NCBI GenBank assembly: GCA_015680685.1
Contig: MNCI01001105.1
Span: 3,213-64,007, forward strand
Direction of reading: 5' to 3'
From: Gnetum montanum
Lineage: Eukaryota; Plantae; Gnetophyta
Length of the DNA: 60,795 nucleotides
Position 1 is the stretch's first letter, and every line of letters starts with the position of its first letter. The notes beneath the pieces are model-generated. The model was not told the origin of the DNA. It searched no databases and saw only the letters and a program-made list of their open reading frames with translations. The translations under genes were made by a program, and so were the position numbers. Positions 15,118 through 59,313 of the stretch are shown here, one piece after another.

Positions 15118-17900
15118 ATGGACTTGAAAAGGATACCAAAAGGAGGACCCTCACAACTGATAAGCAAAAGACCAAGAAGTTGAGGGAGAGGCTGCAATGA
15201 AGAACAAACTCCAATAGTAGAGCACGTAGAGCAGGAAGCCCAATCTTTCAACATTCACTAGCAAACACCTACTATTGAGTAATCTACCCAAGTGGAGGTT
15301 GAAGCACCACAAGCACCAAAACAAGGATAGCACCTCACACTATTGCTTGAATGCCTCCAAGTCATCCAAGAAAAGTCTAGCATGTCTACAATAATTGTGG
15401 AACTTAATTGTGGTCCTTTATGGATATTTCACCAGAGGCCATCAAAACACAACTTCAATCATCTCCCCTATGGCCTACCTTATCAACAAGTGAAGAGTGG
15501 TACTTAGGGAAAATCCTTCAATTTTGGAAAAACAAACAAGCTGGTGCCACAATTAAGATCAAAGGAATTTCTATGTCATATTTAGTGGAGGTGACAGCGA
15601 AAACCCTCAATCTACGAAATGAAGGGGCTAATGTCAAACAAATATCAACATGGTCTTATATTGATATGAAGAGATTGTGGTTACACAGATACCATGGCAA
15701 GGAAGATAAAGAATATAGTGAGCTGACTATACAAGAGAAAATATATTTTAAGACTGGTACTTATCATCTATTCCCAACAAAGCGACTTAATAGAATATCA
15801 ACTTATGTAGCCAAAGGAAGTGCCATATTGATGCAAAAATTCAATGTCAATATCGCCCATCAATACTTCCTTAAAATCAAAAGGCAATTTGAAGAGAATA
15901 CGGTGGAAAAGCCAATGCTATCATTTCCTTGACTGATCCAGAAGCTATGCAAATAAGCAAGCATATTGGATTACACAAATGATGTTTTGAGGAAAGCTCA
16001 AAATGCCTCATATGCTAAAATGTCAAAACCTATGCCTCCAAAGAAAAATCAGTTGGAAAAGCAGGCAGGTACTAAGGAAGCTACTACCTTAAGTCCTATT
16101 GAAACCATCCAGACAACTATTTAACAGCAACAAGCAGGACCCAATAGCCAACAACCAACTGATCAGCAGCAACAACAGCAAGTTCCACCACCGCCGCCAT
16201 AGGATTATAGACCCTTAATGAGCCATATACAACATATTGTAGATACAATTAGCTGGGGAACGAGAGAAGGGGCTAATCTCTATACAGTGATTGATAATGC
16301 AATCAAGCCCACAATTTCCACAAACCCTACCAATGGGTAGATATCATTGTAGCCAGGAGGAGGGGATGAATGGTCACAAAAAATATTAGGGAACACTGCA
16401 TCATTCCAAGTAATGTTGTAGATTGGAGAAGGAGCCACATTAGTGGTAATGCAGCATCAGGATGTAGTGGAAACCATTGAAGTGATCATTGATCACATCA
16501 AGAAGTCTTTTAATGCCCCTATTGTGCCACTAATGGATCTTTCCAAAGTAAGAGACGCTCAAATGCTAGTTGGTTCCTTAATGATCCTTGCTAAACGCAA
16601 AGATGTACTTGGCAAACTACTACAAACATGACAAGTCATGCAAAATCTCTTTGATATCCCCAACGATATCACTATAGTCCAATCTGATTTAATAGCCACT
16701 AAGGGAATGTTGGTCATGGTAGAGACTAGGGTAAAGCATGCTAAGAATGAAGTTCATAGATTACAAGAACAACTCGTGACCCTGAGGGCAGAGAAAAGAG
16801 ATCCAATGCAATTCACTACGTCTAACAAACTTGATCAATTCCAAACAGACCACATCAATCGCCTCATTGATCATAACATGAGGATGGAATATGATAAGGA
16901 AATTTAAGATGCATCAGTAGCAAAGACACAAACATATGCACATGCCAAAGCATTAGTCGTCTTACAAGAAGAGAATAAACAATTAGTTATCAACAATGCA
17001 AGGTTGACCAATGTGGAGAAACAAAAGAATGTCCTCGAGGAGAGTATTCAGCAACTCTGAGAGCAACTGATTTGGGTCAACCAAGACATGAGCTGCTTAA
17101 CCAAGGAAAATAAGACCTTTTCAATGAAGGAAGTTCGTGCAATTGGACAAAAATCTGCAATTGAGATTAGCATATGGCAAAATGAGGTCAAAAAGCATGA
17201 ATGGCTCAAGAAGCATTTTCGTGATTAGGTGGACATGTATCAGCAAATCAATGAGAAAGAAATCCATATGGCTAAAGCCAAGATCAATTCAATTTCAGCA
17301 CAAAATCTAGACTCTTGGATAGCATAGCCCATGTCCACCAAGCTGAAATTGAAAACAAAGACCTACAGATCAAGGATCTCACAGAGTACATGAGATTAGC
17401 TAATATCCAATATGCTAACCTTAGCCATGTTAACAACAGGCATGTCTAGAAATGAGTTAGAACAATAGGTAGCAATCATATATGCTCTATATGAGAAAGA
17501 GTTTGTTGACAGAAAGGATGCACTACAGAAGTTACACATAGAAAATTCAGAAGTAAAAGTTGTTAAGGCTAGCTATCAGGGCCAAAACCATGTGGTAGCA
17601 ACCCTAGCTAGGAAAATGTTTGATTATCAGGAGTTACTAAAGATGGCCAAGGCGTTTGAGAAAGAAAGGCAGTAGTTTACAGCATGGTACATCAAAGCAA
17701 ATAAAATGTTCCTATAGTTACCATGCCCATGGGATGTACTGGCCCCATCACACATTGCACAAGAAGCATGGACAATACATGATCCTAGGACAAAAGAGGA
17801 AAAGCTTCAAGTGTTTCTGAATCGGTATCAATTTAAAAAGCTTGATGATAAGGGGGAAGCAACCAATGGAGGAGCCACCAGCACCGAGAACCTGATCTAC
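15118..17900 (+). pseudogene. Athila env-like extra ORF (Transposase_32-like domain, Q/P-rich linker, long coiled coil), fragmented
   Basis: ORF 15408-15932 carries ...QFWKN...IKIKG...LNL..EG...VNIAHQYF...MLSFP*LIQKLC, matching the family pattern LPFPSLITxLC. It lies between the pol end and the 3' LTR. Heptad-rich fragments at 16443-17700. Confidence 0.72.
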
Positions 17901-18983
17901 ATCAAGCTATTCCAAATTTTGTTTTGTTTTGTTTGTTTTGTCATGAACTCATGTCAAAATTTTGTAAACACCACTGCGAGATTTAGAGTCATGTAAATAG
18001 TTTATCAATCACATATAGTCAAATATACCTCTCAATTTTGTAAGTAACTCCATCCTCATTTTGTTTTAACTTAAGGACAAGTTTCCAATCAGTCGTGAGG
18101 ATATGATAAAATCAATTTTTTTAATCAAAATGATATCGTAGCAACAATGTCATTGATACAATGTCAACACTCTTAATAAGTCATCGTTGATATGAAGTCT
18201 TGGAATGTGTGCACCCCTATAAATACAACACTTGGGTGCACAATGCGCATAACTTTCATTCTCATAGTAATAGAACTCTTGCAATTTGATTTCTTAGCTT
18301 AGAGTTAGTGATAGTAAATGCCCACAGTGTGATGTGTCATTGTTGAGTTGAATCTTTATTTGAGCATGTTGTACTTGGGCACAAGTTGTGAACGGTAATA
18401 AAGATCGAAACTATTTCCCATCATTGCAACATTCCCTTATTTCTTTATGTTTACTTAGCATAATGTTTACTATGTTCTTAGCTTAACATTTACATTTCTC
18501 AAGTACTTTATTTTTACTTGCTAATAGTAAGCAGAATGGATACGACTAATTTCAAGTGTTAAGTATGGTCATTTGGTAATCTCAATAGTATTATTGCTTC
18601 GTTCGCCCAATAGCGAAATACTTGGTAATCCCAGTAGCAATTACATGAGCCCAAGACGTGTGCACTAAATCAGGAACAATTATCCATCACCTTAGGCTAG
18701 AATAGATTTACTTACTTATGATTACTTAGACTTAACATTTACTTTCACCTTCATTATGTCTACGCATAGAAGTTATTTGGGCCACACAACATCAATTACC
18801 GTACACCTCACAGTGAGCTAAACCATACACTTATACTTTACTAGCTCCACGTGGAAAGGCAATGGTCACAAGCTTAACTCAATTACTAAGTATAATAACA
18901 TTGTCCATCCACAGATTACAATTAGGTTCTGTGAACACTCGTGACTTATATGGTTGGGTGTTGGTTTACTCCACCGCTCATCA

Positions 18984-27300: not shown

Positions 27301-30300
27301 TTTAATTTATTGCAACATTCAGGGAAGGATGAATTACTTGCTAGCAATGTATGCTAAATCAAACACCAACTAAAGGTTTTACACTAGAATTCATTATTTG
27401 GGGTCCAATACCGAAAAATAAAAATCCTTGCAGATATCAATCAATCAAAACAATTTTAGGTAATTGTTTTAATAACGTACCTCCACGTAAACCACCGTAA
27501 ATGAAAATATGGTCTCCAACTGCTGATGCTGCATGACGACATCGCCTCGTCAGTTCACTTGATGCATCACCTCCAGCAGCATCTGCACTATATCGTCCTG
27601 TATGAGCACTAGTAACAACACCCTTTATATCACACCAAACTCCAGCTGCTGTGTCGAGTACTGCAATTAGAAGTAAGATTTTGTTATAAAGTCATTTTGT
27701 GAAAAAAAAAAAAAAAGCGATTAACAGCATTGGATAGATCTTATTACAGGAAGCACTAGTTATAACAACTCAAAGAAAATAGATTGAAACCAAAATGAGA
27801 TCTACCTGCAACACTAGAAGAATCTTCCACCATTCGACCCCCTCCAAGGGCTCCACCAGATACATGAAGTCTAGCATTGACAAAAACCTGCTAAAAACAA
27901 TTATTAGCTAGAAAGCCACTTCATAACTTTTGTTTGATGAAATATGGTTTTACAAACTCACAGCTGCATGTTGATATCGGGGAGAAGGAGAAACACCAGG
28001 TGCAATAGCCCATTCCCAACGACCGTCCCGGTGTTTTGCAAGACCATATGCACTGGATAGTGGCTAAAAACATCAATGAAAACAACCATATGCACTCCAT
28101 TAGATTAGTATGCATCCATTTCACTATAATTTGAAAGTACATATATGGATTACACGAATAGCATTCGACTTAATAAGAAAAAACGAAAACAAGTTACCTT
28201 CATAAAGATCTCTGATTTCTGTTATTATGTATAGCTTTCTAGTCTTGCATAGGAATTTCATATAGCTCCGAATAAATCAGAAAATTCATTAAGAAAAAAG
28301 GTACTATGTACAACGTTGGGATATGAAAGGCCAAATCTAATTTAGTCATTAACATGCCATTTCTTTTTCACATAATTAACCAGATAAGCTCGTAAATTTT
28401 TGTTATTAGTGGTTTCTCTATTTTATAGAAGATCCAATTAGCATAACTAAAAGAAAAAAGAGAATACAATTATCAGGAAGCTGTCTAAATGTTGTCCCTT
28501 CTTTTAATATATGATGTTTCATAGATTTTGTCCTTCCCACCAAAATATCGGTGTACTCACCATGTTTCTAGATTCTTTTCATACATGATAAACATTGATC
28601 CTGTACACGTGCTCTCCAAATAATATACAAGTTGCAAAGCCTCGTTTGTTGCTGCAGTTAAGGTATCCCAAAATGTTTTTTAATTATTTTGTATCAAGTA
28701 TGCTAACCAGACGACAACCTAATGCCATTCAATTGCTCTCTATCGAGTTAACGCCCTAAAATAGCCCGTAGCCTGCATTATACTATGTTCCCTTTTATGT
28801 TTTTCCATTTTCCTTTACAGAAAAAAACCCTTTTGCTTTGAAAATCGTAAAACACCCACAATTATTTCTTTAACATCCACAAAAACCATAGGCTATAAGA
28901 TGAATTCCAAGGCACCAAACTGTACTGTGGGTTCCAGATCAGGCAGCAAAATGGCAGTAAATGAAAGCAGACTTTCCATCGACTTGTCCCAGGGTCATCC
29001 AAGCATACCCATAGTGTGGTCAGTAACCACATCCCTGCTGCATCCCGACACATCTGAGGACCCATCCCCACCCTAGGGACATCCCAACCATCCAAATGCC
29101 TGTGAGGACTCGTCCATTCGTAAAAATATAAAATCCTATCAATAATACAAAAACCAAAAATTTTCCTACCGTGTAAATAGTACCAATATTTGTAGCAAAC
29201 AAACATGTTACTCATAATTCCATTATCATACCTCATTTCAAGATTAGAATTGGATTGGTGATTTCCTATGTTGCCAAGGCCATATTGGGGGTTGTATTGG
29301 GGACGCGGCTGCTGCTATCTCTGGTGGTGACATCATGGATCATGGCATTTTTGTTGCTGGTTTGCAATACACATTAAGGCAGGCCTTGGAAAGTAAAAGT
29401 GGCAGCAAATTCCAATGAAATTTGAGGTGGGCACTAACAGAGCTTGTGCACTGCATGACGACATCCAAGTTCACCACAATGCACAAGGGAAGAAACAACT
29501 CTGACACTGTATATGTCATTGCTAAGTGCCACAATAAGGCAGCATTGGATTAGTGCTCAATCAGACTTGTGCACATAGATTAAAAATGCAGAACAGCATC
29601 ATGGATTACCTTTTCAGGAAAAATATTCTATAACGTGAATCGCTTGAAATTGCAACCAGAACCACGTGAAATTGTACAAGTACAAAACAATTTAAAACAA
29701 AATGTCAAAAACTTTTGCAATAAACAAACAATTTTGTTAACAAAAATATTCAAAAAACAGAGAGTAAGAAATCAAGTATTTAACATGTTCAATAATTCAA
29801 TGGTATCCAAAAGGCGGAACTTTTATTTAGCCTTAGCATGTTCATTATTTATCTAGACATAAAATAACCAATAATATAACTCTTCAAAAAAAAGTTTCAA
29901 TGCAATGCACCCAGGGTAAGAAGTGCCCACACAAGCCAGCCCAAGAGACACAACGCGACAAAGCAGAGTATAAAAGAAATATATGTACACAAGCAAGGCT
30001 TCTTATGTTCATGTTACTTGTTTCTACTGTTGGGCAGCCACATTTGGAACATGGCATCCATTAAGGGGCACAAGTATGGATAGACTGCATCCACAACTAT
30101 GGAAAATAAGCAATACTAAAATCAAATACTTATATATTGGTTTTACAACCAAAGGCTTCAACGTTGCTAGCAGCATCAGTGGACAGCCATAGTCACACTT
30201 GTATTGCACTGCCTATGAATGCACACTGCCAAGTAAGAACACATGGACTATCACAGGTGCCGAATTCTAACAATCCTCACCATCAACTTACCACCAATGT

Positions 30301-33300
30301 GGTTGAAAATGGTGCCAAATCTACTGATGCACCGGTCAAGGTGCCACTACCACCAGGGACATTCATGTTTCACTCAATTTAGCTGGTTTTGTTGGATGAA
30401 AACTGCAGGAAGATGCAAATGCACATGGCCATGATAGCAGAGTAGAGAACTATGGAATTGTGTAGATTATGGTATACTTGCAATCATGATACCAATCAAA
30501 TTCAATACTTCCTTTTAATTCACTATGTTTTTTTTTTTAAAATCGCAATCTAGATGATTCCAATCTGCATTTTTAATTTATACCTGTGTAAGCCAAGGTC
30601 AAGCTCAATCCATTAATGCCCTTGCTTTTGTGGAGACTAAGGACATGGTCAAGAGACGTGGTCAAATTTGACCATATCCCTGTCATGTCCCCGCATATCT
30701 AGTGATGAATCCCCATCCTAAGGATGTTCCAGACAGCAAAATTTTTGGAGGGTCACATCCCCACATAACAGTCAATTTTTTAATTGGGGATCGGTTCCGT
30801 AATTTAAAAAATTTAGGATTTGAGCTTTGATTTGATATTTAGCATTCACTTGCTTGGTGGGCGATTTTGTTTCATAATTTATACATGGATGCAGATTAGA
30901 ACATACTTCACCAACTTCAGACTTGCTAGGGTTACATATTCAACCCTTGGGTTTCAGTAATTAAAACCAATGTGAAAGTCCAACCATTTCAACATGTAAC
31001 ATGGAACCCATTTCTACAATGTTGTCATCAAGACAAACTTTGCAACACTCAACATTTTAACTAAAGCAGCAATGCCAGGAGCAAGGCATCTAGAAAGATG
31101 TTTTCAAGTTCATGAAGGGATGGATTTCCTTGACAGACGGTGCAGCACATATTGAACTCCAAGACACATGTCACTGCAACAATTTCTTCCTACTTTCATG
31201 GTGAATAATTGGTGATCTTGCTTTATGGTTTACACTTTACAATCTATGCTCCAAATGTTAAGCAATACAAGCCAAGTTTCTTAAGTAACTTATTTATAGC
31301 CAGAGCTGTAATAATATATAACCCACTTGACCTTAAACTACTTACAGAAAAAAACATAAGTTACATGGGAATTTGTTGTTAGATCCGGTATCTTGCTACA
31401 AATTTCAGCAGCTCTTTAGACTCAAATTGCAGAAAAAAATCATATAGCCAATTTCATGTAGTTCGAATAAAGCTAGGATAATAATGATTTAGGTGCTGCT
31501 AATAGCCTAGCACAAACCACATTTGCACCTTTGCAGAGGCCATTGGGTTTCTCCATAGACATGTTGGAGTAAACAGCAATACCAACATTATCAGCCACAA
31601 GACTTTCCTGGAAGTTTTTACAAAATTGGTTAATTGTCCAAGTTCAACAAACATTGGGTTAGCTTGTAGGCAACCAAATGTATATAATAAGATGCAAGGT
31701 AATGGAATTGATTGCTGGAGTGTTTGCGCCTTTTTTTAAGGGATTAGAACTTACTATACGTTACTTTCTTTTCCATTATAGCTTCAGATATGTGGTTGGT
31801 TGGTTTCAATTTTATTGTACTAATATTAATTTCTAATTGCATAATTTGCAATTGTCGATGGGCCCCTGACAGTAGTATTACAGACCGTGATTCAACATTT
31901 GCAACAAGGGTATGTCATTGCTGCAAAGAAGAAGAATGCTAATCAGGATTTCGCTACTAATTTATCACACTCTAACTCATGTAAAATGCATGCATACAAA
32001 AGAGAGCTCCATTGATGATCTGCAACAGTCTGGTGCAGATGAGGATTTTACACCAGTAAACAAAATGCTCATGTAGAGTGGCAAAGGAGGTATGGTTCTG
32101 ATGCAAGTATCAAACACAGTCACAATATTAATGACATGCCTAATCCTCAAAACCAGCAAGCAAGGATTTTAGCAAGCAGTTTAACACTAAGACCAACACA
32201 ATTTCAGGGTTTCAACAACTGGTGACAAGTAGGGTCATCATTGTGATAGAATTTGCCATTAACTCAATCAGCAACAGCAATGGTAAAACAAGAGCTACAA
32301 GAGTACAAGAACATGATGTTGAATGTTAAAATGAAGCCAAATCAAAAAGAAACGGAGCGTTACGCTGGGTGTAGAGAACTGGGGTGTTTGAAAGATTCTG
32401 ACGGAGGACATTCTCTGCTAAAAGGAGTGTGATATGAAATTGCAAACAAAAAATGCAGCAACGGTTGCTTCACAGTTGTCTGATGCAGGAAGTATTAAAG
32501 AATGTAAAAGATAAGACAAAAAGACTCTGATAACCGTCATGTTTGGGCAACAGAATTCTTCAGTCGCGTAGTTAAATTTCTTCAACACATGAACTTCGGC
32601 GGATTTTAAAGCAATGGTATGATTACCCATCAAGTATGAATTAATATTGTAATCTTAACACGATTTTAAAAATGAAAACGAAGGAATGTGCATTGCTACA
32701 AGTCCGTCTAGATGGAATCAGTAATCCATTTGAAAAGTTAAATAATCCTAAAGTAACGTGTAAAAAAAAATTTAAGGTTATTGCAGTTCTTACAACGTTG
32801 ATAACAATTTCAAACACTAGGCCAAGTGTCAACACCATTATCTGGAAGTTGTTGAAAGCAAACAAACCTAGGTCTACAGAATCTATTAGAGATGCCCTAG
32901 CTATTCAGAGAGAATGATCTCAAACTAATGATGAAGAATGTCGTACAAGCCAAAGCAGAGGAGATTCCAAAAGCAAAGACATGGGAGTGTTGGTTCTGTA
33001 AGAAGGGTCAATTTAAAAAGGGTTCTAACGCTTATAAAACATGGAAGAAGAAAAAGGGAAAAGAGGTTAAAGGAAACAAGACTGAAGGATCAAATAAGTC
33101 AAAAGGGCATGTTAGATTGATGCTTGCCTGCTTAGATCCACATACAAATTTGTTTGAAAATTCTGACAATGTATAGATATTGGATAGCAATACTTCTTTT
33201 CATTTTTGTCAAACTGCAGGTATTTCAGTTCATATAAGAAATGTTCACCAGATACTGTTTGTGTTGCTCATAATAGAAAGTTCTAGGTTCATGGTATTGG

Positions 33301-36300
33301 AACTGTTGTGTTGAATGAATCAATAAGATGGACAATGGGTGATATGGGTGGGAATGCACGCAATGGAACCAAGGCCGATGGGAGCAACGGCAGTGAGGAC
33401 GGAGGAGCAACAGCGGCTGCCGGTGCGCCGAAGGGTGGAGTGAAGCAAGGACTGTGGGAGCATCCATCTGGTGGATTGGTTGGCCTTCCAAGGGCCAACA
33501 GTGTGGTAGGGAAGTCATTGGACCTATCGGGAGGCTCCACTGGGCAAGTGTGTGAGGAGTCGTGCTTGAGGGATGTTTGCATGAAGGAGGGATGATGCGC
33601 TTAAAGGTGGGACAACTACCAGAGGAGACAATCCAGGCGTTGAAGTTGTGCCTGTTGGGAAAATTCGTGTCAGAGGGCCCTAAAATGGACCTTATCCGAC
33701 GGTGGGCCAAGGTGGCCTAGGGTTTAGAGGAGGTGAAAGTGCACAACCTTGCGGATGATAGGCTACTCTTCACGTTTAAGACAAAGGCAAACAGAGAATG
33801 TGGGCTTTTTTTCTTCTTTTTTTGGGGGGGGTGGGGGTGGGGGTGGGGGGTGGGCAGGCCACACAAGGTTTGGCACTCGCGCCATGGCAGCGAGGTGCCC
33901 ACCGTGATGCCAATCTCTTTGACCAAGCGCCCATCTGGGTCAAGATCTTGGACCTGCCCCTAGAGTTCTAGACACCTAGTTTCCTGAAGTCGCTAGTTGG
34001 ATTATTTGGAGACTTCATCAAATTTGATGCTTTCACCATGTCAATGGATAGGATGGGCCATGTGTGCTTCTGTGTGTGGTGCTCGCTCAGATCGGAAGAC
34101 CGTGTCAATGAAGTAATCCTGGACATGGATGACGGAGAGGTACAAGTCAAAGTATAGTTTGAGAATCTACCACTTCTGGATCAAGGGTAGAAAGCTATGG
34201 CCGCGCCAACATGCTCAACCTGCGAAAAGGGGCACCTAAAGAAGGACTGTTGGGTCAAAACCAAAGAGCCTACACCCAAGTCACGAAGTGGATGGAACCT
34301 GGTCGGGAAAAAGGAAGGGTTATAAAAATGGTGGCACAGGACAAACAAACAAAGACGGGAGCCAAAGGATCCACAGCGAGCAAAGCCATCATAGAGCCAC
34401 ATCAATACTCTCAAAAGGGACGGATGGTTCGAGACCCAGCGGAGGGGTCAACAAAACAATTGCTAGGAGTAGTAAGCCCAATCCCTAGGGTGACTGGAGA
34501 GGTGGAAGGGTCAAGGGTGGAGACAACAGCAGTCCGGTCCCCTCCCACCAAGGACACCTTGAAGCACATGTCGAACAGGCAACATTTGGAATTGCCCCCT
34601 CTCGAAGATTAGATCACGCTTGACAGAGGGTCTTCCAGGCCAAAAATGGCAAATCTGGCTACAACCCGATCAAGGCCAGAAGGTGATGTGGAATACTCAA
34701 GCGAAAACAAGGTGGGCCGGTTGGATGCATCGACAGGAAGGAAACAGCTGATGTAATTGGAGGTGGACCTCAAGGTGCAGAGGACTCTGAGGGAGGTCTA
34801 TCACAAGTGTATGTCTATGTCTCCATGAAGATTCTATCCTAGAATTGCAGGTGACAAGGTACCCCATACAAGCATAATACCCTAAAAACGATTGTTTGGA
34901 ATGAGGGATGTGACATTGTTTGCCTGCAAGAAATGAAGCTGCAGGTGACTAAGGAAAACCTATTATGATGGGAAGGTTGGAATCTGATGAGCATTCCATG
35001 TAGGGGATGTGCTGGTGGGCTTGCTATTTTGTCAAAATTCCTTGTTAGTTAGGTGGACGGATCACAATAACGATGTACTTACCCCAAGAACGAATCTAGT
35101 TAACCAATGTTTCTGGGGTGCAAAGCTAGGAGGTGAGAATGCAAGAGCTACAGAGGGTGGTGCACGTGGTCCTAGCTGCAAACAAATGGCTGCTAGTAGT
35201 AGACTTCAATGAACGCTTGTACCCATGGGAAAAAACAGGCACGGACACCACCGAACCCCCTAGCAATGAAGAGTTCGCTGATTTCTTGCTGGAACACAAC
35301 CTAGCAGATTTAGACATTGAAGGTTCCAAATTTACCTAGAGTAACAAAAGATAGGGGCCTGGTCGAGTTCAATCTAGGATTGACAGGGTCTAGGTGAGTA
35401 CATGGCTACTGTTGGAGTTGGGCATACAGGTGATGGGACAAGAGCAACAAGCCTCTGATCATAGGTCGATTGTTTGCTGGCTCGGAGGGGCGCTGGACCA
35501 AGCACCCAAACCATTCTATTTGAAGTGGACTTCATTGAGCAAGCCCTAGCTCCACCCACTGGTACAAGAAATATGGCAAGATCACTTTGAGGCTCAAGAT
35601 CCGAGAGAATTCCTAAATAGGGGGCTGAAATTACTGAAACAACAAATCAAGGCTAGGACCTCGAAGGAGAAATAGAGATTCAAGGCTTACCAGTAACAAC
35701 TACAAGCTAGCCTACAGGACATGCAAGAGCGGCAGGAAGCTAGGGCCAACCTGACGAATGAAAAGCAGGAACTACTCCAAGAATTACAAGAGCTGGACAA
35801 GGAGGAAGAAGCTTATTAGCAACAGAGGGCTCAAGGGGAAAGAGGGCAAGAAGCTCCACTTCATCTAGTCCGAGGAGAAAGAGGGCAAGAAGCTCCACTT
35901 GGTTTGTTGGTAGCTGACTGCAAGGCCGTGGGTGGTAACAGGAATTGGGGTGCTGACCTTTATGGATGAGGTCATGATCAGCATGCAACACTTAGTGAAT
36001 AGAATGTTGATGCAGCCCGGGGAGCACACTCCATGGATGAGGATTCTGCAACAAAAAACATCATAGATGGGAGGCTATCACTAGGAGATCACACTTATGG
36101 AAGAACATTTGCGAACATGTCAGAACAATGGAGGCCAAAGGACTGCTGGGCAAACCCCCATCCGAGGTAATCAAGAATCTGCACCCAACAAAGGTGGGGT
36201 GGAAGGAGTTGTGGAGAGGAAGACTAACAAGGTGAAGGCATTTGGCTAGCTCATTAGGCACAATTCCTTACCAGTACGGGCAACCTTAAGGATGCAGGGA

Positions 36301-39300
36301 ATCAGCACCAATACTACTTGCCCTCTTTGTAATGAAGCAGTGGAAACATTAGCGCACTTTATCAGCCAATGTCTGTTCATGCGAGAGGTTTGGAGAACGG
36401 CTCTACTTCCCCCCCCCCCCAATGGCAACTCCTAAGCATTAGCTATATTATGGTCTGCTTGGAAATGCAAGAACCATTATCTCTTGTGGACACCCTCTAC
36501 GATCATTAGGATTAGAGTTTTCTTGTGGACAAAAGCAGCACAAGCCATGGGATGGGGGCCAACTCACGAGCAAGCAATCATTGAATTTACTGAAGATGCA
36601 CAACTTTGGCTGCTGATTACAAGACTAGGATGGGAGGGTATGCTTCGGAGCGTGGAAGGGGAGCCAGGGTTGCCGAAGAAAAGTTTCTTTGGGAATGGGA
36701 GGGGGAGGAAACTTAGTTCAAGAGCAGAAAGATAACGCTAACTGAGGCAACTTTGGAGGCGGTTTTGGGGATGCCAACGAAAGGGGAGATTATTGCTCCA
36801 ACAATACACTCCCAAATGTTCACGGCTGAATTTTTCTGAGGCGCTATCCCACGGACTGCTAGTGGCCACATACGTAAAGACAAACTGGCAAGGGTTTGGT
36901 AGGTTGCGGCTGTCTTCGTCAACCAGTTTTTCATTCAGTTAGGGTCACTACATAGACTCGTGGGGGTCCATTTTGTGTTCCTCCGATGCATCCAACATGG
37001 CATTCAAGTCAACATTCGTCATTTTTTCCTTGATTCTCTCAGGCACAAAAAAGCCAAAAGACAATCTAGAGTTATCTTGGCACCTCTAGAGGGCAAGGCA
37101 ACCGGAGATTCCAACGCAAGTGAGGACTGCACCAACCCTGGTTTACCATAGGAGGTCTCAATGACAAGAAGAGGGGACTCAGATGCTTGAGGGACAGACC
37201 AAAATTGTTGAGGCAAGGCAAACATCTGGCAATAGCATGCAAGAGATGGAGCCTGACAGTTCGAAAGGAGGGCAAGCCACACCAGCCGATTGTGTGCAAG
37301 ATAAGCTTGTTGCGGCATGTTAGTCTGCAACTAAGCGGGAAAGGGCAACTTGGCAATCCTACTGGGAAGCAATGCAGACCGAGATTCAAAGGGAGGCGAA
37401 TGCACAAAGGATGAAGGATCTGCAACTCATGGAAGACTTGTTAAAATGCCACACAACCAGTATGCTCAAATGGTTGAACAACACAAGGAGAGGCAAGAGA
37501 GTTGCATGCTTCAAGGGCTTCCAGGGGTCGAAAGCGAGGCACAATGGGTTACAACCAGGACGGCTACACACGAGGAGATCTCGAAGCAAACACCAACAAA
37601 ATGGACAACGGCCTCAGGTGCGTTGGGTGTGGCAATGTCAATCATCGAGGAGGGCTCGACGGGTGCCAACCAAGCATAGGTGGCGAAAGACTAATCTCCA
37701 TTTGGGGCCATGCTTTTGTTTGGGGGAATTAGGGGGGGTGTTGGGGCTGTCCTAGCGATGGTTGTTTGGGCCTTTGCTTGCCATCTAGCAGGGTCTTGCT
37801 TTGGGGCTGCGGGCTGGAGTTGCGGAAGCTGACACAAGTTTTTTTGCTTCCTTGTTGGTGTCCATTATACTTATCTTTTAATCAATCTCAAATTTTCTTC
37901 AAAGAAAAAATAAATAAGATGGACAACATATTACTATTAGAGTTGCTCAACATGTTAAAGAAATTACAAAAAACGTATTAGAAGTGTTGTCTAACGAACG
38001 CCTTAATGAGGTTGGTTACAAGTTTTCTTTTTCTAACAGCACATGTGAAATTAACAAAGACACAATAACTCTAATGAGTGGAACAAAGGACGGTTCCTCA
38101 TGTATTTTGCATGTTGTTGTCATCAAGAAATTGGGAGAGGGTGTTGCTACTTCTGGTGCACCTGTAACAGAAACTGTCAATTTATGGTATAGATGCTTAG
38201 GACATATTGGATAAACAGAGTAAAGTTACAAGTAGTTGTTCCTAATTGCAAATTATAAGGATTTGCAGTTGAATTAATAAGATTTATGGTTTTGCAAGAG
38301 TACAACAAGTATATTATAGGTTTCTCCTGCAAGCTCACTGCTTTGCAAGGCAGGTTTCTCATGCAATTTCATTGTTGTTTCACAGAATAAATTGTTCTTG
38401 CAAGGTTCATTGCTATTTTATAGGATAGACTGTTCTTATGGGTTCATTGTTGTTTTTGCAAGATGAATTGTTATTGCATGTTTGTTGATATTTTACATGA
38501 CAAGTTGTTCTTGCAGTTCAAGTATCTTCACAAGACATTATTCTTGCAGGTTTGTTGCTAGTATCCTGGGAGCTTGCTGAATCAGAATCACAATCCAGAC
38601 AATTCTAGATCACGATATGGAGAAAAAAATGTATTAAAACACATCATAATCCTGATCGTAAGTGCATCACAATTAATAAAAAAACAAGTATTTTGAAATT
38701 GCAAGTTTGAAATCGAATGTACATGATTTCGCAATTGTGTACTCTGTTATCATAACCTATCTGTATCTATGTCCTCCTGCAATTAGTTTCATCAGACAAA
38801 ACTGTGAATATGCATGGCAATAGTGGCACTTCCAATGATGTATCAATGCTTTTGGCACCATTTTCAACTGTGTTGGTGGTAGTCCAGCAGTAAGGACTAT
38901 TAGAATTCGGCACCGGTGATATTCTACATGTTCTTACTGGAAAGTTCAAGCATTCATAGGTTATACAATACAAGTGTAACTGTGGCTGCCCACTGATGCT
39001 ACTAGCAATGTAAAAGCCTATAGCTGGAAACCCATTAATGGAAGTATTCGACACCTACTAACAGCCTGACATAATTGAGGATGCAATCCATGTAAACCCA
39101 GCCATGTGTATGCCCCTTATTAGATGCCAAATTCTAAACGAGACACCCTACCATGCTTCTACCCAACAACAGACGCATGAAAACAAAAAATCTTGCCTCC
39201 CGTTTGTGAACGTACTTGTGCATATACATTTCTTTTATACTCTACTCTGCAACACTGTGCCTATTGGGTTGGCTTTTGTAAGCACTTCCTGCCCTACTGC

Positions 39301-42300
39301 GCTAGCTCCATTGTATTAAGCCTTATATTTGAAGGCTTATAATCTTTCTTATTTTATGTCTGGATAAATAATGAGAACACTGAGACTAAAAAAAATTCCT
39401 CCTTTTAGATCCCACTGAATTGCCCATGGTATTTTTGGTAGTTACGTGATTTCTTACTGTATGTTTTTTTGAATGTTTTTGTTAACATAAGTGTTTATTT
39501 ATTACAAAAATCTTTAAACGCTTTGTTTTAAATTGTTACTTTTAAAATTTCATATGATTCCGAATAGTGATTCCAAGCAATCTACGACCCAGAATCTTTT
39601 GTCTGAAAAGTTAATCCACAATCCAATCCAAATTTCCAATCTATGGGTTTTATTCAAAAGTACATTATTCCTAGAGGACCATTGGTAGGATGTATCATTT
39701 TGCATGTATTTCTCAAATGTGACATGATATTGAATAGTGCACATTTTGAGATAGAATCTAGGTTGAGGGCGTGTATTCCCATATTTGTTTCTCATGTTGG
39801 CTCCAGAATCAAAAGGCTTAAAAATTAGCGAAAGTAAGATAGAATATATGGAATGCAATTTCAATAACAATATAAATAATGGTTAAATAGAAGTAACAAT
39901 TCAAGGTCAAAAAGTTTCCCACTGCAAACAATTCCGCTACCTAGGATCAGTGCTCCAATCACATGGTGAATTTGATAAAGGTATAAGAAATCAAATTGAG
40001 GCAGGATGATCATGATAGAGACAAGCTAGTGGTATTCTATGTGATAAAAGAATACTAATAAAACTGAACAGAAAAGTTTACAGGACAGCAATCAGGCATG
40101 CTATCTTATATGCTACTAAATGTCAGGAAGCACAAAGGAGGAATGAACAACAAATCAGTATAGCAAATATGCAAATGCTTAAATGTTGAATGTTGAGTGG
40201 CTTCTATTTCAGATAAGTTACAAGAATGACTACTTAGACGGTTTGGGCATGTGCAAAGAAGATCAAACAATAAGCCTATAAAAAAAGTTGCTACATTACT
40301 ATTCCAAAAAAACCACAAAATGAAGACCAAAAAAGACATGGGAGGAATGAACAACAAATCAGTATAGCAAATATGCAAATGCTTAAATGTTGAATGTTGA
40401 ATGTTGAGTGGCTTCTATTTCAGATAAGTTACAAGAATGACTACTTAGACGGTTTGGGCATGTGCAAAGAAGATCAAACAATGAGCCTATAAAAAAAGTT
40501 GCTACATTACTATTCCAAAAAAACCACAAAATGAAGACCAAAAAAGACATGGGAAAAAATATCGAAGATGATCTGAAGAAATTGCAAATAAACAAAGATC
40601 CAACTGTTCATAGAAGCAAATGGTGAAAAAGAACTCATGTAGCCAACTTCATTTTGTTGGGACAAGGCTAGGATGATGATGATGTTAACATTTAGGAGCA
40701 GGATTGTTGAAGTAAATAGCAATGCCATAAGAAACCAGATGTATAAATTCAAATAAAATGCAGTAAACTTGATTATTTGAGCATTTGCCCCACTTCAATA
40801 GGGGCTCAAGGCTTACTTTTAGTTCCCTTGCTTTTTCATTGTGACTGTGGATATGTGTTTGGTTTTTTATTTCTTGGCACTAAACCATTGCATTAATATT
40901 TGTTTTTTATTGCAAAATTTCTTATTGTTGATGGGGCCCTAACAATACAATGTAGGTGATATATGGTGCCTAATCTTCTTGAGTTACTATCTTTAGTACT
41001 TACCAACAAGAAATATGTGTTCCCTAATTTCAAAATTTAGGATTTTAAGGTAAGCATGTTTATGTGTATCTGTATTAGAATAGATAGTGTATCACTACCA
41101 ACGTGCAAACTCGGCCTGTGCTTTAATGATATGGAAAAAGTACACCAATCATATTAACTAAACAACACCAGGGTTTACACTGCTCCCAATCATTAATTTT
41201 GGGCTCTATTAACTCAAATAGAAAAGTTAAGAATTTTTTTCAGCAACTCTTTAAACTTGGCTGTTGTAGTTTTGGTACAGTTTTGTGAGGTCATGCTGTG
41301 AAGTTTAATAACCTTTTATCATTGTTTTCTTTTTTCATTTTATTTTTCCCTTTTTTAGAGAGCAAGTGGATGTATCATATGCATAAACAGAAACCACTAA
41401 CACTCTATAGATTTACAGATAACTATAAGATTTAGCATTGGGGGCATCATTTAGAATAATGGTAAGCTGCTTGCTTTGAAAATCACATGACCTGGGTTCA
41501 AATCTGGGCACAGCCACTCAAAGAGGTTAGGCTTTTGTTCATCTACTGATCCTCAAAGGACCCTCCCTTGCAGGATGAGCATTACGCCTCCTAGTGATGA
41601 TCCTATTATATGATTTAGCATTGAAAATCAAAGCTTAAAGCTATGTACTATCATTTATTTTCTTTTTAGCAAAGATGTTTTGAATTATGCTAGATTTATG
41701 ATCAGTTATAATTGATTTCTGAAAGACTTGAGAGAATGAAAAAACATTACAGTAAACAGATAATTGATATGGCAAAGAACTGATAAAACAAGAATGTGGC
41801 TAATCTAATAGCAAAGCCTGCTTTATGTCTCTTATTAATTTTCATGGCCACGCAAAAAACAGCTTAAGTCCATGTCTACTACTATTGCAAGACAAATCTG
41901 CTGGAAGCTCATTAAACAAACACATCTACGAACTAGTGCGTGCTAACGATTACATCTCATCATATAGATGGCTGTAGCTCTAAATATACAACATGATGCT
42001 AATTTTGGGAATGAATAAAGAAACTAAGTCAATTACCACACTAGTTGCATCTCTTCCACCACACAACAAAAGCAGGCCATCTGAACGAGCACTTGCAGTT
42101 GCATACCTGAAAAAGAAATCGCCATAATTGTTATAACTTCTAACCTGCATTTCACATAAGCATGACCGAGAACTACAATAACAAGTAAAAAAAATTTAAA
42201 AAGCTCCTTCACAAAATTGAAAAAGTAACATAAAAACACAACCAAATTTGATTAGCCTTCATACAATACATGCCTCCTTCAATTCTGAACATGGCAAAAA

Positions 42301-48300: not shown

Positions 48301-49714
48301 TATATGGTTTGCACTATGCATCTTCTGCACCTAGTCAAGTTATGCACGCATCTTTCTACATCATCTTCTATATTGCATCTGTATATTTGTAATTGTCTTA
48401 AAAGCAATTTTCAAATATCAGTACCTGCTGTGAAATTTCAAAGAGTTTCTGTCAATGACATTGTAGCTCAACTGGTCATTTGTTGGTTTCTCAACCAAGA
48501 AATTATGAATCTGACCTTGACGTAGCAGGTAAATTGGGCTTGCTCTGTGCCTTCCATCATATGGTAACTTTTTGTTATTTGGGAGAAAGAAAGAGGTGTC
48601 ATAGAGTAGGCAGCATGGGTATGCTGTGTGCTTGGCATTGTAAAGTAATTTTTTGTTATTTGAAGAAGGGTGTCATAACCTGAAACTTTTCTTCCTTTTG
48701 GTTTTCTTTAACTATATGCATCCTAGAACATATAGCTAACAGCACGATACTTAGGTAGAATTTAGATAACATGTAACCATCTCATGTGTAACTACCCAGT
48801 CAGATAATGATGTAACTAACTGAGCCACCTGTCAATGGCTCTCCTAATAAGTTTTTATTATTGAGTTTCGTGCATATTTTTCTATTCAAGCACTGTTCTC
48901 CATGGTAATTTATTCACCATTTTGATCACGTTTTGTGAAAGCTAGAGGCCTTTGTTGTTTGTGTTGACTAACCGATGATACCTCATGTACTTTTTTAATT
49001 GTTCTCCGCTGAAATCACCGGTAAAGTAACTTTTCAGAAACAAGTAAAATCCATTTTGTTTCGACAAATCCTTCTCTATTATTTGTAACAGTTCTAAATC
49101 TCCTATGCTTTAAGAGCCTAGCATCCCATATCACCCACGCAGGGTTCTAAATTCTCCTTGCCGATACAGCAAGGGGGAGACAGCAACCTTACAGATACGT
49201 TTTGGCGTTTCAAAACTCTCACAGACTCACCATCAAAATCTAAACCACTGTAACCAAAATTTGAAAAATTCAAATTGAACCAAATGAGTCAAAAAGAAGT
49301 CAAGAACAACTCACTGATTCCTGCGCTACCACCTGACGACGGAGGACCCGTGGCTGCGGAATTGCCCTCAAGCGCCGTGGCACCGCCGAACAATATCAAC
49401 CTCGGTCCTACGTATCCAGGCGAGCCTTCTTCGCCTACAGCGGCTACGGAGGTTAGCGTGTGACCACATCGAGATTTCGGTCCATCCTCTTCCTTCTCTA
49501 TTATGGCCTTCAAGACTCTGTAAGAAGGGGCAGGGCGGGGCCCTTGCTGCTGTGGTTGATGATGAACATGATTATTCGTATTATGCTGCTGCTGCGGCTG
49601 CTGCGATTGAGATGACGCGGCAGGCTCCTGCGCGTTCGCATTGGCCTGCGTGTTCTCGTGATCCGAATCCATCGCCATTCCGGAATCCACCTCCATTTGC
49701 TCCGTCGTCGTCAT
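21343..49714 (-). CDS. BSL2/BSL3: Serine/threonine-protein phosphatase BSL2/BSL3-like (BSU1 family, Kelch repeats plus PPP catalytic domain); 21 exons, 1006 aa
   Basis: Exons, minus strand: 49315-49714, 47090-47150, 43083-43161, 42853-42932, 42669-42763, 42443-42542, 42037-42106, 27962-28063, 27806-27887, 27481-27660, 25447-25729, 25081-25324, 24805-24975, 24464-24702, 22837-22921, 22643-22741, 22358-22557, 22181-22256, 21794-21929, 21575-21714, 21343-21441. All introns are GT-AG with consistent phases, total 3021 nt. Kelch motifs (RCGHTLT, PRAAHVA, PRYGHVM, PRYQHAA) and PPP motifs (GDLHG, GDYVDRG, RGNHE, HGG, RAHE, SATNYC). [14 protein letters not shown] and [15 protein letters not shown] indicate the BSL2/3 clade. 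Alternative start at 49696 (MEVDS). Confidence 0.96.
26468..26695 (+). mobile_element. tRNA-derived (Au-like) SINE with internal duplications, BSL intron 10
   Basis: A-box-like TGGAGGAATGG and a duplicated B-box segment AGACCTAGGTTCAAGCTTG. The body matches the copies at 41441 and 47490 (AAAGGTTAxGCTTT...GGATGAGCATT...GTGATxAT). Confidence 0.7.
28975..29310. mobile_element. Degenerate non-autonomous DNA-transposon (hAT-like) remnant with (A/G)TCCC subterminal motifs; related copy at ~30630-30820
   Basis: GTGGTCAGTAACCACATCCCTG...ATCCCCACCCTAGGGACATCCCA at ~29016 resembles GTGGTCAAATTTGACCATATCCCTG...ATCCCCATCCTAAGGATGTTCCA at ~30658. No TIR or TSD established. Confidence 0.4.
29625..30480. 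repeat. ~0.9-kb dispersed repeat, copy 1 (inverted relative to 38690-39600)
   Basis: Shares blocks with the reverse complement of 38690-39600, e.g. AACAATTTAAAACAAA, GAGTATAAAAGAAAT, GCATCAGTGG(A/G)CAGCCA, GGTGCCGAATTCTAA and GTTGAAAATGGTGCCAAA. Confidence 0.85.
33336..37912 (+). mobile_element. L1-clade LINE, near full span but RT deleted, inserted in the copia protease region
   Basis: 14-bp TSD AATAAGATGGACAA (33322-33335 and 37913-37926) and A-rich tail. ORF1 DUF4283-like (LCLLGKF...[13 protein letters not shown]) with knuckle [16 protein letters not shown]2 endonuclease MKILS*NCR at 34825, then DIVCLQE, DFNE, GSKFT*SN and RIDRV. zf-RVT HNSLPV..TL...CPLC...ETLAHF..QC..REVW. Confidence 0.92.
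38690..39600. repeat. ~0.9-kb dispersed repeat, copy 2 (inverted relative to 29625-30480), nested in the copia element
   Basis: Reverse complement aligns by eye along copy 1. Confidence 0.85.
39803..40685 (+). mobile_element. RTE-clade LINE 3' fragment with an internal ~205-bp tandem duplication
   Basis: [37 protein letters not shown] and FGHVQRR; (GAT)n tail. Duplication at 40137-40340 / 40341-40551. Confidence 0.88.
41441..41611 (+). mobile_element. tRNA-derived Au-like SINE with TSD
   Basis: A box (TAGAATAATGG), B box (GGTTCAAATC), CAGCC...AGGCT body, and 12-bp TSD GATTTAGCATTG at 41429-41440 and 41612-41623. Confidence 0.8.
43323..43793. mobile_element. Probable Tourist/PIF-Harbinger-type MITE in BSL intron 2
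   Basis: Inverted termini TTTGGCTAAGAG / CTCTCAGCCAAA; internal reiterated (TT)CCCATGAAAA and AAAGTTCATCTCTT motifs. Confidence 0.5.
45050..45784 (+). mobile_element. RTE-clade LINE 3' fragment in BSL intron 2
   Basis: [26 protein letters not shown] and [10 protein letters not shown]; ends GCCAACCCCATTTTG...AAGGCTAGATGATGATG. Confidence 0.85.
46400..46870 (-). pseudogene. Possible highly decayed L1 RT fragment
   Basis: [13 protein letters not shown]...[10 protein letters not shown] and VCP...LGFGDI resemble L1 RT motifs; the match is weak. Confidence 0.3.
47490..47615 (+). mobile_element. Internally deleted copy of the same SINE family (B box lost), BSL intron 1
   Basis: CTTGGAGTGATGATAAGGTGCTTGTTTCTCAAGTTG joined directly to AAAAAGGTTAAGCTTTCATTCATCCACCAAC...CTGGGTGATGATCC. 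Confidence 0.65.
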
Positions 49715-51450: not shown

Positions 51451-54400
51451 TGATGAGCGGCGAGGTACCCCTACGCCCAACCATACGAATACGAGCATTC
51501 ACGTGCGATCCAATTGAACTCCGAGGATTAAGTGCTTATGCACCTACACAGAACAAGGATGAGTTATGCAATCATTGTCTTCCCAAACTTACTTGTAAGG
51601 CACAATTGTATGGTTAAGTAAACTCAAGGTATATGATTTTTATGTGTTTTTTTATATTTTCTATCTTGGTCTCCTAAGTGTGTGCAATGAAAAGATTTAG
51701 TTAACTAATGGGTTTTTGTAACTCTAATGTGAATCAAATCCTAACACCAGCATTCATTCCCACTCTCCAGACACATCCTGAACTAGTGTAACACTACTGG
51801 GATTACCAAATGCTAGTCGTTACTAGGTTACCAAGCGTTCCACATATGCTCGAAGTGGTTGTGCTAAGTGTGCTAATTCATTGATAATTGATAATTAATA
51901 ATCTTATAGAAATAACATTAATCAACTAACGAAAGCGTCAAATAACATTAAATGTAATAATTAAGCTATTCTAAATGTTCCAAGGTTTATGACAAAGTTC
52001 GTCTTTATTTCCAGGCACAAGGTGTGCTCAGTACACAATGCTCAAATAAAGATCCGTTCACTTTATGACTCCTACTACGGGCACTCAGAAATAATTCTAA
52101 CTCTGGAAGAGAAAAACTACAAGAGTTTGACTAAGGGATTGAAAAATTACTCTCCAAAACCAAATGCCCTTGTCTCTTATTTATAGCCAATGAGACAAGC
52201 TCTGACATCGCGTGTTCGACGTCACTTGGCCCATCTGATATCGAGGGTCCGATATCATAAGTCTGATATTGGGTCAGTTATTTGGTGACTCATCATACCC
52301 CCATGACTAAATGAAAACTCATCCTCAAGTTCCTTACAAAATATTGGGAAGATATGGGATTATTAACTAAATGACAACTGACAATGACATGGAATGACAG
52401 ACTCAAAGTGCCCAATGAACAAATTGACAAATGTATTACAACATCGGTGTTCATAACCATTGTGGTGAACACTGTACATAGATGACATTCAGACCCTCAT
52501 TTGACAGCTTGAAGAGAGAGAGAAAAAATAAAATGAGGCGCGTTGCTGCCAATATCAAAAATGTGCACACTGTTGTTCATTCATGGCCACATGACTATGC
52601 GTGTTCCTTGCGTCAATGCTCTAGCTCCAGTCCATCCTGAGTGCTCCCTCCTATCCTAGTCCATTATTTATGTGATCTTCATCTGCACACACAGCACAAT
52701 CATGAATTAGCAAGGATAGATAAGATATAATACAGTTGATACCTTGCTTCGATATGAAGCACATCGGCTAGGTTGTGGGTATGGCAGATACTGGGTTAGA
52801 GGTTTGTAAGTGATAACTACCCAAGGTGTAGGGGTGAGATAAGTAATGGAATGAAAAAGTTTGTGACAGGCCCCCACGACTAAGAGCAAACCTCCAATAG
52901 CAATAGGATGGAAAATGAAAGAAAAAAGGAAGATAAGAGGAATAACAATGGTGAAGCCAATAAAAATGTATAGAATAGATGTCATGGCTAGGATGAAATG
53001 AGAAATAGTTGATTACAAAAAATGTTTAAGGAAAAATAACTTAACAATTGCACCAAAAAGGAATGCCAGTGGGTCCTTCCCAAAGCAGGCTCATGCCCTT
53101 TATACCCTGACAAACCCACAAACCAAAGAGTCTGTAGGTTCTAGGAATGACATATGGAGACAATAGTTAAAAATTCACCCACAAGAATTTACCAAAGAAT
53201 AACAATGTGTCAACTAATATATAGACTAATCATAAAATCGGCAATGAGGTAGAATATGGGAAGCAACATGGAAAGAGAAAAGAGAATGGAATGGAATCCC
53301 GAAATCAAGGTTGTGTAAAGTTCCTTATAGATTATGTGGTTAAGGTGACTTAATAAAATTCAGTCCAAATCCACATTAAAACTAACCACATCCAATGACC
53401 TCACATCAACATACTTGACCAACCCATCCTTCTAAAGCAACAAGAATGCTTTCATAGAGCAACCACCATCCCAAAAAGAGAAGAATAGAGAAGTAGGAAG
53501 TGAGAAAGGGCCTTAGTTAGAGAAAACCTTCAGGCATGGGAAACATGTCTTTCTAGTACCATAACCAATGCTTGTTGCCCATGTTTCTTTATTATGTCTA
53601 AAGGGTGTGCTTTGAATTCCCAGCAGTTTTGTTTTTTTTTTTAGTGGGAACCACACCATACAAAGACTTATTCGATTCATTCAACTTCTTGATATTAGCT
53701 GACAACGGAATGGCAAAAAACCTATGAAAAACATCCAAGTACCCAAGAGAATAGCCAGCACAAATGCGTTGAATCCCTTTGAAGTCACATCCTTTTCAAT
53801 CCATTTGAATTTTTCCTTGGTTTGAAGAATGCCAAGCCACAAATTCATTAACAGGTTTGATTAGAAAAAGGGACAGTACATTTTCAAAACAGAGGGAGAC
53901 CATAGAGTTGAATGGATGATGCAGACTCATTACCTTTTTATCAAAAGAAACCATATATTGCATCAACATTAAAAGTCAAAGGTAAAAACCAAACACTAGT
54001 AATCAACACCATCATAGTACAACCCATCATCATGAGCACTTATTATGTGACAAATAAGAATAAATTAAACAAAATGTAATAGAGAAGGAAATAGTAAAAA
54101 TGTTAACGATGGTGTAAAACAAAAATAAGTAAAAATGAAAAATGTGTAAAACAAAAAAAAAAAGACAAAAGAAACCCGAGGCTTAGAATAATTAGCATTG
54201 GTGGCCATCTCCCCCACGACTGAGTTGGAAGGAGGAGATCCGAAATAATGAACAGGGCTATTTATTAATAGAGGTAGTGTTAGTACTGGCTATTTTTGGC
54301 TCATGGAAAGGTTTGGTTTCAACACATTGTTTCAGTACTTGCTCTAATTGGTCCAATGCTTATTCAAATTCCACTCCATAGGTGGAGAAATCATCCATAA

Positions 54401-59193: not shown

Positions 59194-59313
59194 AAGACCT
59201 ATACGATCTATTGGACATATATTACATTTTCATGAAAATTAAAGATACACTTTACAAATTGACCAAGCACCAATGAGGGCATAAAAAATTCATACAAGTA
59301 TTTTGTTGTAACA

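Follow-up and report, generated by a model that had tools for sequence, protein, structure and literature searches.

A plant L1 lineage in which ORF2 may have exchanged its RNase H for an Athila-type accessory domain

Plant long interspersed nuclear elements (LINEs) of the L1 type that carry an archaeal-type RNase H were reportedly described by Smyshlyaev et al. in 2013. In the parts of PMC5203782 and PMC4408406 that were available, the archaeal-type RNase H of plant L1 elements follows the CCHC/zf-RVT motif of the second open reading frame (ORF2). In the insect R1/TRAS LINEs, a viral SF1 helicase is located on the C-terminus of ORF2 and a counter-silencing role has been proposed for it, according to excerpts of PMC4686597, and the origin and function of the accessory ORFs of plant long terminal repeat (LTR) retrotransposons are described as long open in excerpts of PMC7264820 and PMC11963269. 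The DNA analyzed here, referred to as the window, is a stretch of 60,795 nucleotides of Gnetum montanum (GCA_015680685.1, contig MNCI01001105.1, positions 3,213 to 64,007, forward strand), which contains at 33336-37912 on the plus strand an L1 LINE that is a decayed member of a multi-copy plant family. In this element, the zf-RVT domain of ORF2 is followed by a long extension other than a whole RNase H, and the evidence as a whole tilts towards a dead, reverse transcriptase (RT)-deleted L1 copy whose ORF2 tail replaced the RNase H and was captured from the accessory ORF of an Athila-type element.

The closest described systems each share some traits with this locus. As far as the available text of the papers on RNase H-bearing plant L1 elements goes, the window element resembles them in its DUF4283-containing ORF1, APE endonuclease, zf-RVT, ILW..N motif, target-site duplication (TSD), A tail and additional C-terminal domain of ORF2, whereas the slot of that domain is occupied by a longer, apparently helical domain with a linker and a coiled-coil-like helix. 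Compared with the Athila PF20167/PF03078 accessory ORFs, as presented in portions of PMC11728184, PMC13547354 and PMC7264820, the extension likely possesses the same core domain, on the basis of a weak end-to-end profile match, together with the same order of parts and no membrane segment; in contrast to them, it is found in a non-LTR element, likely as an ORF2 fusion, is devoid of the basic N-terminus and of the C-terminal helix motif, and falls below curated cut-offs. The insect R1/TRAS elements are similar in that the ORF2 C-terminus has been extended from another type of replicon, but their domain is an enzymatic one from an RNA virus with clear sequence homology (PMC4686597, in part). Cross-class sharing of modules is also exemplified by the bdelloid accessory ORFs common to LTR elements, Penelope-like elements and the ORF1 of non-LTR elements; however, in the sections of PMC5408684 available, these are separate ORFs with enzymatic or fusion functions, and no plant L1 ORF2 fusion appears there. 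No plant L1 with such an ORF2 domain was found in the literature searched, outside the scope of which lie Heitkam 2014, Smyshlyaev 2013, Steinbauerova 2011, Repbase and the ORF2 domain tables in a supplement of PMC5203782, sources that may bear on novelty. Within that scope, a long ORF2 extension other than RNase H would set this family apart from the RNase H-tailed plant L1 elements already known.

An earlier note on this DNA, made from the letters alone, had described a TSD-bounded, A-tailed L1, and this description is borne out by an exact 14-bp TSD and a 12-nt A-rich tail. The parts of the element are as follows.

33322..33335, no strand: 5′ TSD of 14 bp, exact match to 37913-37926
33336..37912, plus strand: decayed L1 LINE with the RT region deleted (Pfam, TSD, spacing and translation)
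33601..34827, plus strand: broken ORF1 region with approximate outer limits; DUF4283 at about 33870-34055 (PF14111, E 1.9e-8)
34828..35471, plus strand: broken APE endonuclease of ORF2 (PF03372, E 6.7e-5; PF14529, E 2.9e-6)
35832..35900, plus strand: junction of the internal deletion that removed the RT, with a 28-nt direct repeat (spacing, repeat and alignment limits of other copies)
36256..36393, plus strand: zf-RVT (CCHC) domain of ORF2 (PF13966, E 5.3e-10)
36394..36519, plus strand: indel-prone linker with a poly-C run, the stop at 36433 and the ten-residue L1 helix motif ILW..N (36445-36474)
36520..36696, plus strand: segment A, in frame with the L1 motif
36695..36716, plus strand: frameshift and stop (36714) of the window copy; most other covering contigs have an extra base and no stop
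36717..37088, plus strand: segment B, helical domain with stops at 36837 and 36900 (end-to-end profile tests suggestive, other tests negative or borderline)
37089..37323, plus strand: low-complexity linker with a frame change in the window copy (translation, contig depth)
37324..37694, plus strand: amphipathic, coiled-coil-like helix and tail with a frameshift at 37458 (translation, contigs of 4/4 runs)
37695..37900, plus strand: G/T-rich 3′ untranslated region (UTR); G or T at 142/218 bases over 37695-37912
37901..37912, plus strand: short A-rich tail of 12 nt, 10/12 A
37913..37926, no strand: 3′ TSD of 14 bp, exact match to 33322-33335

In the window copy, one frame with the single stop at 36433 runs through zf-RVT, the ILW..N motif, which is also present in the canonical plant L1 fragment L031, a 14-residue motif (36604-36645) and FFGN (36685-36696), and a second frame leads from FKSRKITL (36717) to VILAPL (37071-37088) through the two stops of segment B; the motifs of both frames lie where the earlier note had placed them. 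A single frameshift had been thought sufficient to connect the whole tail, but more breaks are needed, around 37090-37165 and at 37458, and the helical segment lies in a third frame. The CxxC..H motif (37619-37645) likewise drops out of the protein, being in yet another frame, while the extra base at 37458 leads into the third frame.

The continuity of the frame was read from other copies of the family. This stretch is represented in 19 listed sequencing runs with 8 organism labels from 11 studies, with no RNA run on the list; the contigs of four DNA runs (four organism labels: X1, X6, X7 and X17) were aligned over the whole element, and those of three of these runs were aligned again over 36190-36990, the depths given being summed contig depths and not copy numbers. 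Own-locus contigs, with 2-3 differences and no gaps, confirm the break of the window copy near 36695 as genuine. In other copies, one more base is present behind 36695 (depth 30.9/40.7, 30.7/50.9 and 8.2/19.5) and the stop at 36714 is absent (70/83.8, 53.7/72.3 and 37.7/55.2), so that segments A and B are joined. Between the ILW..N motif and segment A, one record has 15 additional nt and another contig 8, and the loose ends of 9+5 contigs contain, by eye, five extra codons that lead in frame from the motif into A; loose contig ends at 36899 and 36915 have a sense codon, also by eye, at the site of the 36900 stop. Furthermore, one base is missing over 36875-37321 in a contig that is 98% alike, and behind 37458 an additional base is present in contigs from 4/4 runs; together, these changes would bring the linker and the helix in frame to the stop at 37692, the likely end of the ORF. 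The resulting open frame would cover about 400 codons beyond the ILW..N motif, and on the strength of these alignments the extension is very probably an in-frame C-terminal part of ORF2 throughout the family.

Some counts speak against this continuity. Net in-frame length was preserved in 1/4 of the listed diverged records bridging 36695, and the linkers from zf-RVT to segment A are in frame in 3 and out of frame in 5 of the listed contigs. Independent copies with all parts in one ORF had been named as a check in the earlier note; the extension linked to zf-RVT does occur in diverged contigs, but an intact one-ORF copy was not seen among the contigs of the runs. No selection signal was detected in the majority differences (synonymous 6/19, expected 0.33), which are mostly the window copy's own decay, so that the synonymous counts are uninformative. 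In an oligo-dT run (26/100 read), 34 reads fall on 36190-36990, 26 of them <90% alike, on both strands, which is too few for any statement on expression.

The extension is not confined to the window copy. Over 36540-37070, contig depths sum to 74-200 in X1, X6 and X7 and to 14-20 in X17, and those of zf-RVT to 171-257 and 58, respectively, with own-locus contigs at about 5-10. Contigs <90% alike on 36190-36990 account for 139/193, 120/157 and 97/153 in the three runs, and thus many diverged L1 copies exist. A 718-nt contig, 80-83% alike, spans zf-RVT to the domain, the same joint recurs in 3/4 runs, and the copies that link zf-RVT to the extension are 15-20% diverged. Because of these many diverged copies and the recurring joint, a one-off chimera is very unlikely, and DNA similarity between the L1 and the window Athila-type element is absent (best non-self E 0.82). 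Eight listed diverged records wholly inside segment B carry 262 substitutions and 0 gaps; to be set against this is that such gap-free records are length-selected (24/540 rows). Between two well-covered blocks, the summed contig depth of the linker bin 37071-37247 is only 3-35; the linker may vary fast among copies or be altered in the window copy, and this could account for the lack of the C-terminal helix motif described below.

In the canonical fragment L031, the order is zf-RVT, ILW..N, helix and RVT_3, and the extension of the window element takes the place of the RNase H, as first proposed, without being a whole RNase H. An RNase H profile was built from 28 archaeal-type sequences, with or without 3 plant fragments, and its end-to-end score for the extension was at chance (129/500 and 66/500); no RVT_3 match was obtained from Pfam within the extension.

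The comparator for the identity of the extension is the accessory ORF of the Athila-type element in the same window.

15408..16022, plus strand: Transposase_32-like accessory ORF of the Athila-type element (PF20167, E 5e-5)

Read with X at its stops, this ORF scores 23.7 bits against a 45-bit gathering cut-off for PF20167, and its earlier assignment as Transposase_32-like is therefore retained below that cut-off; against a Transposase_32 profile built for this analysis it gives E 6e-7, a score reached by 0/2000 shuffles. The profile consists of 9 full-length and 5 partial domains, 28-95% identical, taken from plant DNA within prokaryote assemblies, where they were located by a primer-binding site (PBS) pattern scan; two unpublished genomes were kept out of all profiles and nulls. 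In end-to-end alignment, the scored B segment (36717-37139) lies above 2959-2999 of 3000 shuffles. With profiles of 9, 14 and 15 rows, its score is reached by 41/3000, 3/3000 and 1/3000 shuffles, by 9/813, 0/813 and 1/813 window decoys, and by 3/409, 0/409 and 0/409 pieces of real proteins, respectively. Segments A and B joined with X at the break gave 8/300 and 1/300 for shuffles and 14/300 and 2/300 for decoys; with the 14-row profile, 8/1000 and 6/1000 for shuffles and 18/594 and 8/594 for decoys; and after the window Athila ORF was added to the profile, 3/1000 and 1/1000 for shuffles and 9/594 and 4/594 for decoys. Among real bacterial protein pieces, 1, 1, 1 and 0 of 276 reached the A+B score. 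Over models and nulls, p ranges from about 0.0003 to 0.05. On the best path, VNIRHFF occupies model states 151-158, where VNIAHQYF of the Athila ORF occupies 152-159, and VILAP occupies 173-177, where LSFP occupies 175-178, so that a 21-residue stretch and VILAP adjoin the states of the matching Athila motifs. This end-to-end register is the motif register that had been proposed beforehand from the letters alone; in direct pairwise comparison, the claimed parallel in motif order is at chance. Moreover, an hhalign comparison with the Transposase_32 profile gave E 0.011 with an almost gap-free alignment over 70 columns.

The order of parts in the tail was also compared. In members with a complete 3′ end, genuine accessory ORFs consist of a basic N-terminus, the domain, a low-complexity linker and an amphipathic helix, and the L1 tail shows domain, linker and helix in the same order without the basic N-terminus; sequence similarity between the helix of the L1 tail and that of member L030 is not significant (E 0.20). 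The C-terminal FP-x-LI helix that is present in members and in the Athila ORF is not found in the L1, in which the linker begins after VILAPL; its absence may be specific to the window copy. On these comparisons, the identity of the extension with Transposase_32 is suggestive, segment B is probably a Transposase_32/Athila-accessory-like helical domain, and segment A may represent the L1 helix plus either a remnant of the RNase H start or the N-terminal part of the captured domain. An Athila-type origin of the extension is on balance likely overall and, once a fusion is granted, an Athila-type accessory ORF is probably the donor.

A considerable body of results pulls the other way, and the proposed homology, which stands on the end-to-end tests, found negative or borderline answers elsewhere. 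Pfam gave no match to segment B at E<=1 and none to its pieces at E<=10, the joined form lying outside the Pfam scan, which covered pieces; NCBIfam gave no relevant match to any piece of the extension, and the single phmmer match among 1.84 billion proteins is a 61-residue tandem-repeat artefact. BLASTP of the extension against the Athila ORF gave E 46 and 11, with shuffle z of -1.0 to 0.05 in 18/18 settings. A local profile test gave E 0.014, a score reached by 327/2000 shuffles and 76/813 decoys, and another local test gave 559/1000; the hhalign probability is 3.7% for the L1 versus 51% for the Athila ORF. In addition, the profile rests on only about four lineages, all L1 end-to-end bit scores are negative, several scoring schemes were tried, and the composition of the bacterial null is a different one. 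The best p was obtained with a model that ends ahead of the C-terminal helix, a limit set post hoc once the L1 was seen to lack that helix, and the fuller model with that helix gives 8/300 shuffles and 14/300 decoys. Segment B covers about the same profile range that the Athila ORF matches, and segment A is at chance against the N-terminal part of Transposase_32 (166/1000). The 45-bit gathering cut-off of PF20167 is not reached by segment B, and the extension domain is not filed as a member of that family.

Further searches yielded nothing relevant to the extension: neither Pfam matches to PF03078 (ATHILA ORF) or PF10536 (PMD), nor ATHILA or PMD members in the 3 assemblies searched, nor PDB sequences, nor word-index protein searches (0/196, 0/6 and 0/307 candidates), nor metagenome stretches (0/135), nor viral contigs (0). 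One further metagenome stretch of 96, with an 18-residue match in DNA of 53% GC and without L1 features, was set aside as chance. Neither protein gave a result in the Atlas. Single-sequence structure predictions were unusable (pLDDT 36.0 and 45.8). The segment had been called env-like, a term that fails in the membrane sense: the maximum 19-residue hydropathy is 0.76 for A, 1.49 for B and 0.90 for the Athila ORF, values too low for a membrane-spanning segment, so that env-like is the name of a position only.

Other explanations were weighed against capture from an Athila-type ORF. The extension could be an orphan helical domain, derived from the host or another mobile element, that is in frame throughout the family as a non-catalytic appendage of ORF2p and resembles Transposase_32 by coincidence of amphipathic helices. 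The negative Pfam, phmmer, pairwise and local profile results, the missing C-terminal helix motif and the unmatched segment A are all in keeping with this possibility, but it leaves to chance that the end-to-end scores, obtained in the register of the earlier note, are higher than those of almost every shuffle, decoy and real protein, that the score rises once the Athila ORF of the same host joins the profile while the null is static, and that the order of the tail matches that of accessory ORFs; it is considered rather unlikely. It is much less probable still that the extension is a heavily diverged, catalytically dead RNase H region with an unrelated tail. By eye, segment A has the W-x-P, T-E-D-A and G...LR...GE spacing of the RNase H start of L031, and its post hoc score against the first 45 RNase H states is reached by only 9/500 and 2/500 shuffles; however, the same score is ordinary among real proteins (70/600 and 28/600), and the whole domain finds no counterpart in the tests above. 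Segment A is therefore at most a remnant, which would be compatible with a captured tail joined to the L1 somewhere within the former RNase H.

The remaining alternatives concern how, or whether, the captured segment is translated. A captured 3′ ORF could be translated apart from ORF2, as an ORF3 by reinitiation or splicing, or be out of frame in a subfamily; the net indels in 5/8 listed contigs over the zf-RVT-to-A linker, which are not multiples of three, would suit this, and the status of the 36433 stop in other copies is absent from the listed rows. These indels are, however, at differing places, mostly between zf-RVT and ILW..N, a region that is one frame in the canonical L031, the step from the motif into A is in frame in most contigs read, and the tail possesses no Met-led basic N-terminus as in stand-alone ORFs, so that separate translation appears improbable. 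That the segment is a passenger without coding function, or a single nested LTR fragment that chance has amplified, is likewise given very little weight. Two stops in the 144 codons of segment B are not rare by chance (P 0.37), which would allow for a passenger, but copies about 16% apart keep the segment colinear, mostly gap-free and without the breaks of the window copy under four organism labels, and there is no LTR, PBS or DNA match. In agreement with the first reading, repeat and PBS scans of the L1 revealed no LTR, PBS or inner TSD that would signal a nested insertion: no LTR-sized repeat was found within the L1, only the TSD, the 28-nt pair (35834/35873) and short or imperfect pairs, and of the Athila-type PBS pattern the window contains just two instances (9066 and 30300), both outside the L1.

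For capture from an Athila-type element, the following course can be proposed. An L1 ancestor would have replaced the coding region of its RNase H by the greater part of an Athila-type accessory ORF, either by recombination or by template switching with the junction inside that region, and would have retained its own 3′ UTR and tail, since neither an LTR nor a PBS nor a second TSD accompanied the ORF. ORF2 would then run past zf-RVT for about 400 codons, through the helical domain, the linker and a predicted coiled coil. The ORF2p of L1 binds its own RNA and works in cis at the nicked target; a fused non-catalytic, helical, oligomerising module could consequently act on the integration complex. 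Such a tail may anchor the L1 particle on chromatin or host factors and in this way bias insertion, and host RNase H could stand in for the lost RNase H domain, for which a precedent is said to exist in human L1. Anti-silencing in trans is less likely than tethering because ORF2p is scarce and cis-acting. Tethering is favored because, by prediction, the Athila domain assembles into pentamers via coiled coils and has many host contacts (PMC13547354, in the part available) and the PF20167 ORF of a sunflower Athila element is predicted to be nuclear (PMC11728184, likewise in part). Even if an Athila donor is assumed, tethering with host RNase H substitution is a tentative proposal, rather less likely than not. 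The fullest form of the scenario, in which an L1 lineage across several related species swapped its RNase H for a nearly whole Athila accessory protein translated as the ORF2p C-terminus, has only a slightly better than even chance of being correct. If it holds, a second C-terminal module of plant L1 exists beside RNase H, and its retention on the ORF2p of a LINE without a virus-like particle or envelope would argue for a nuclear role near integration; an envelope role would make no sense in a non-LTR element, chromatin tethering would become directly testable, and a natural comparison would be provided by the insertion sites of tail-bearing L1s and their RNase H sister L1s in the same genome.

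The window copy itself is a dead, non-autonomous L1 derivative in which both ORF1 and ORF2 are broken. Its 14-bp TSD, 3′ A-rich tail, lack of LTRs, DUF4283 ORF1, APE endonuclease and zf-RVT identify it as L1, and the RT domain is deleted: between the end of the endonuclease-RT linker and the cysteines of zf-RVT only 517 nt remain, with no Pfam match to 35817-36253 in three frames. At the deletion junction, the 28-nt direct repeat (35834-35861 and 35873-35900, period 39) may record a slipped template switch or a repair event. In contigs of other copies, alignment stops at 35817 or begins at 35879-35887, limits that would fit the presence of an RT in those copies, in which the RT itself was not seen. 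A putative zinc knuckle is visible by eye in the translation of ORF1 near 34215-34250. The element has inserted into a Copia-type element.

33209..33316, plus strand: insertion host, Copia-type pol with Pol_BBD (PF22936, E 3.3e-4)

This Copia-type pol resumes 3′ of the L1 towards gag_pre-integrase (38152-38211; PF13976, E 0.038). A joint of 33313 to 37909 in X6 and X7 contigs represents an empty site or a paralogous Copia. As the known insertion target of the window L1, the Copia element is a single anecdote. Inverted arms at 29707-30365 and 38805-39515, 73-86% complementary, flank both the L1 and the Copia fragment, and could possibly belong to a DNA transposon with long terminal inverted repeats that hosts both insertions.

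The Athila-type element that contains the comparator ORF extends over 8403-18983, with LTRs at 8403-9064 and 18324-18983 that are 87.6% alike and a PBS at 9066-9083, which we take to be that of the Athila-type lineage. It possesses a gag (PF03732, E 0.0075), a protease-like frame (by eye) and the long 3′ accessory ORF; no RT or integrase frame was seen, 12250-15100 lying outside the profile scan, and the element is probably non-autonomous. A second LTR element on the minus strand (51452-59700) has a gag region 68% alike to that of the first, an RT (PF00078, E 2e-17) that breaks off near 54300, and a repeat pair at 51452-52304 and 58338-59202 with weaker third copies near 59446-59686. The three prokaryote assemblies that supplied the profile members (G001, G002 and G029; L015 and L019-L038) contain plant retroelement DNA comprising Transposase_32 ORFs, an Athila-type LTR end with PBS, and L1 zf-RVT and RNase H pieces; this DNA is contamination from the host, from which members of the family can be drawn. 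Elsewhere in the window, an open frame at 49289-49714 on the minus strand, with no Pfam match, presumably resembles the first exon of a BSU1-like kelch phosphatase, a Gypsy-type integrase frame is seen by eye at 118-1100, and a 38-nt tandem array at 1693-2110 adjoins N gaps.

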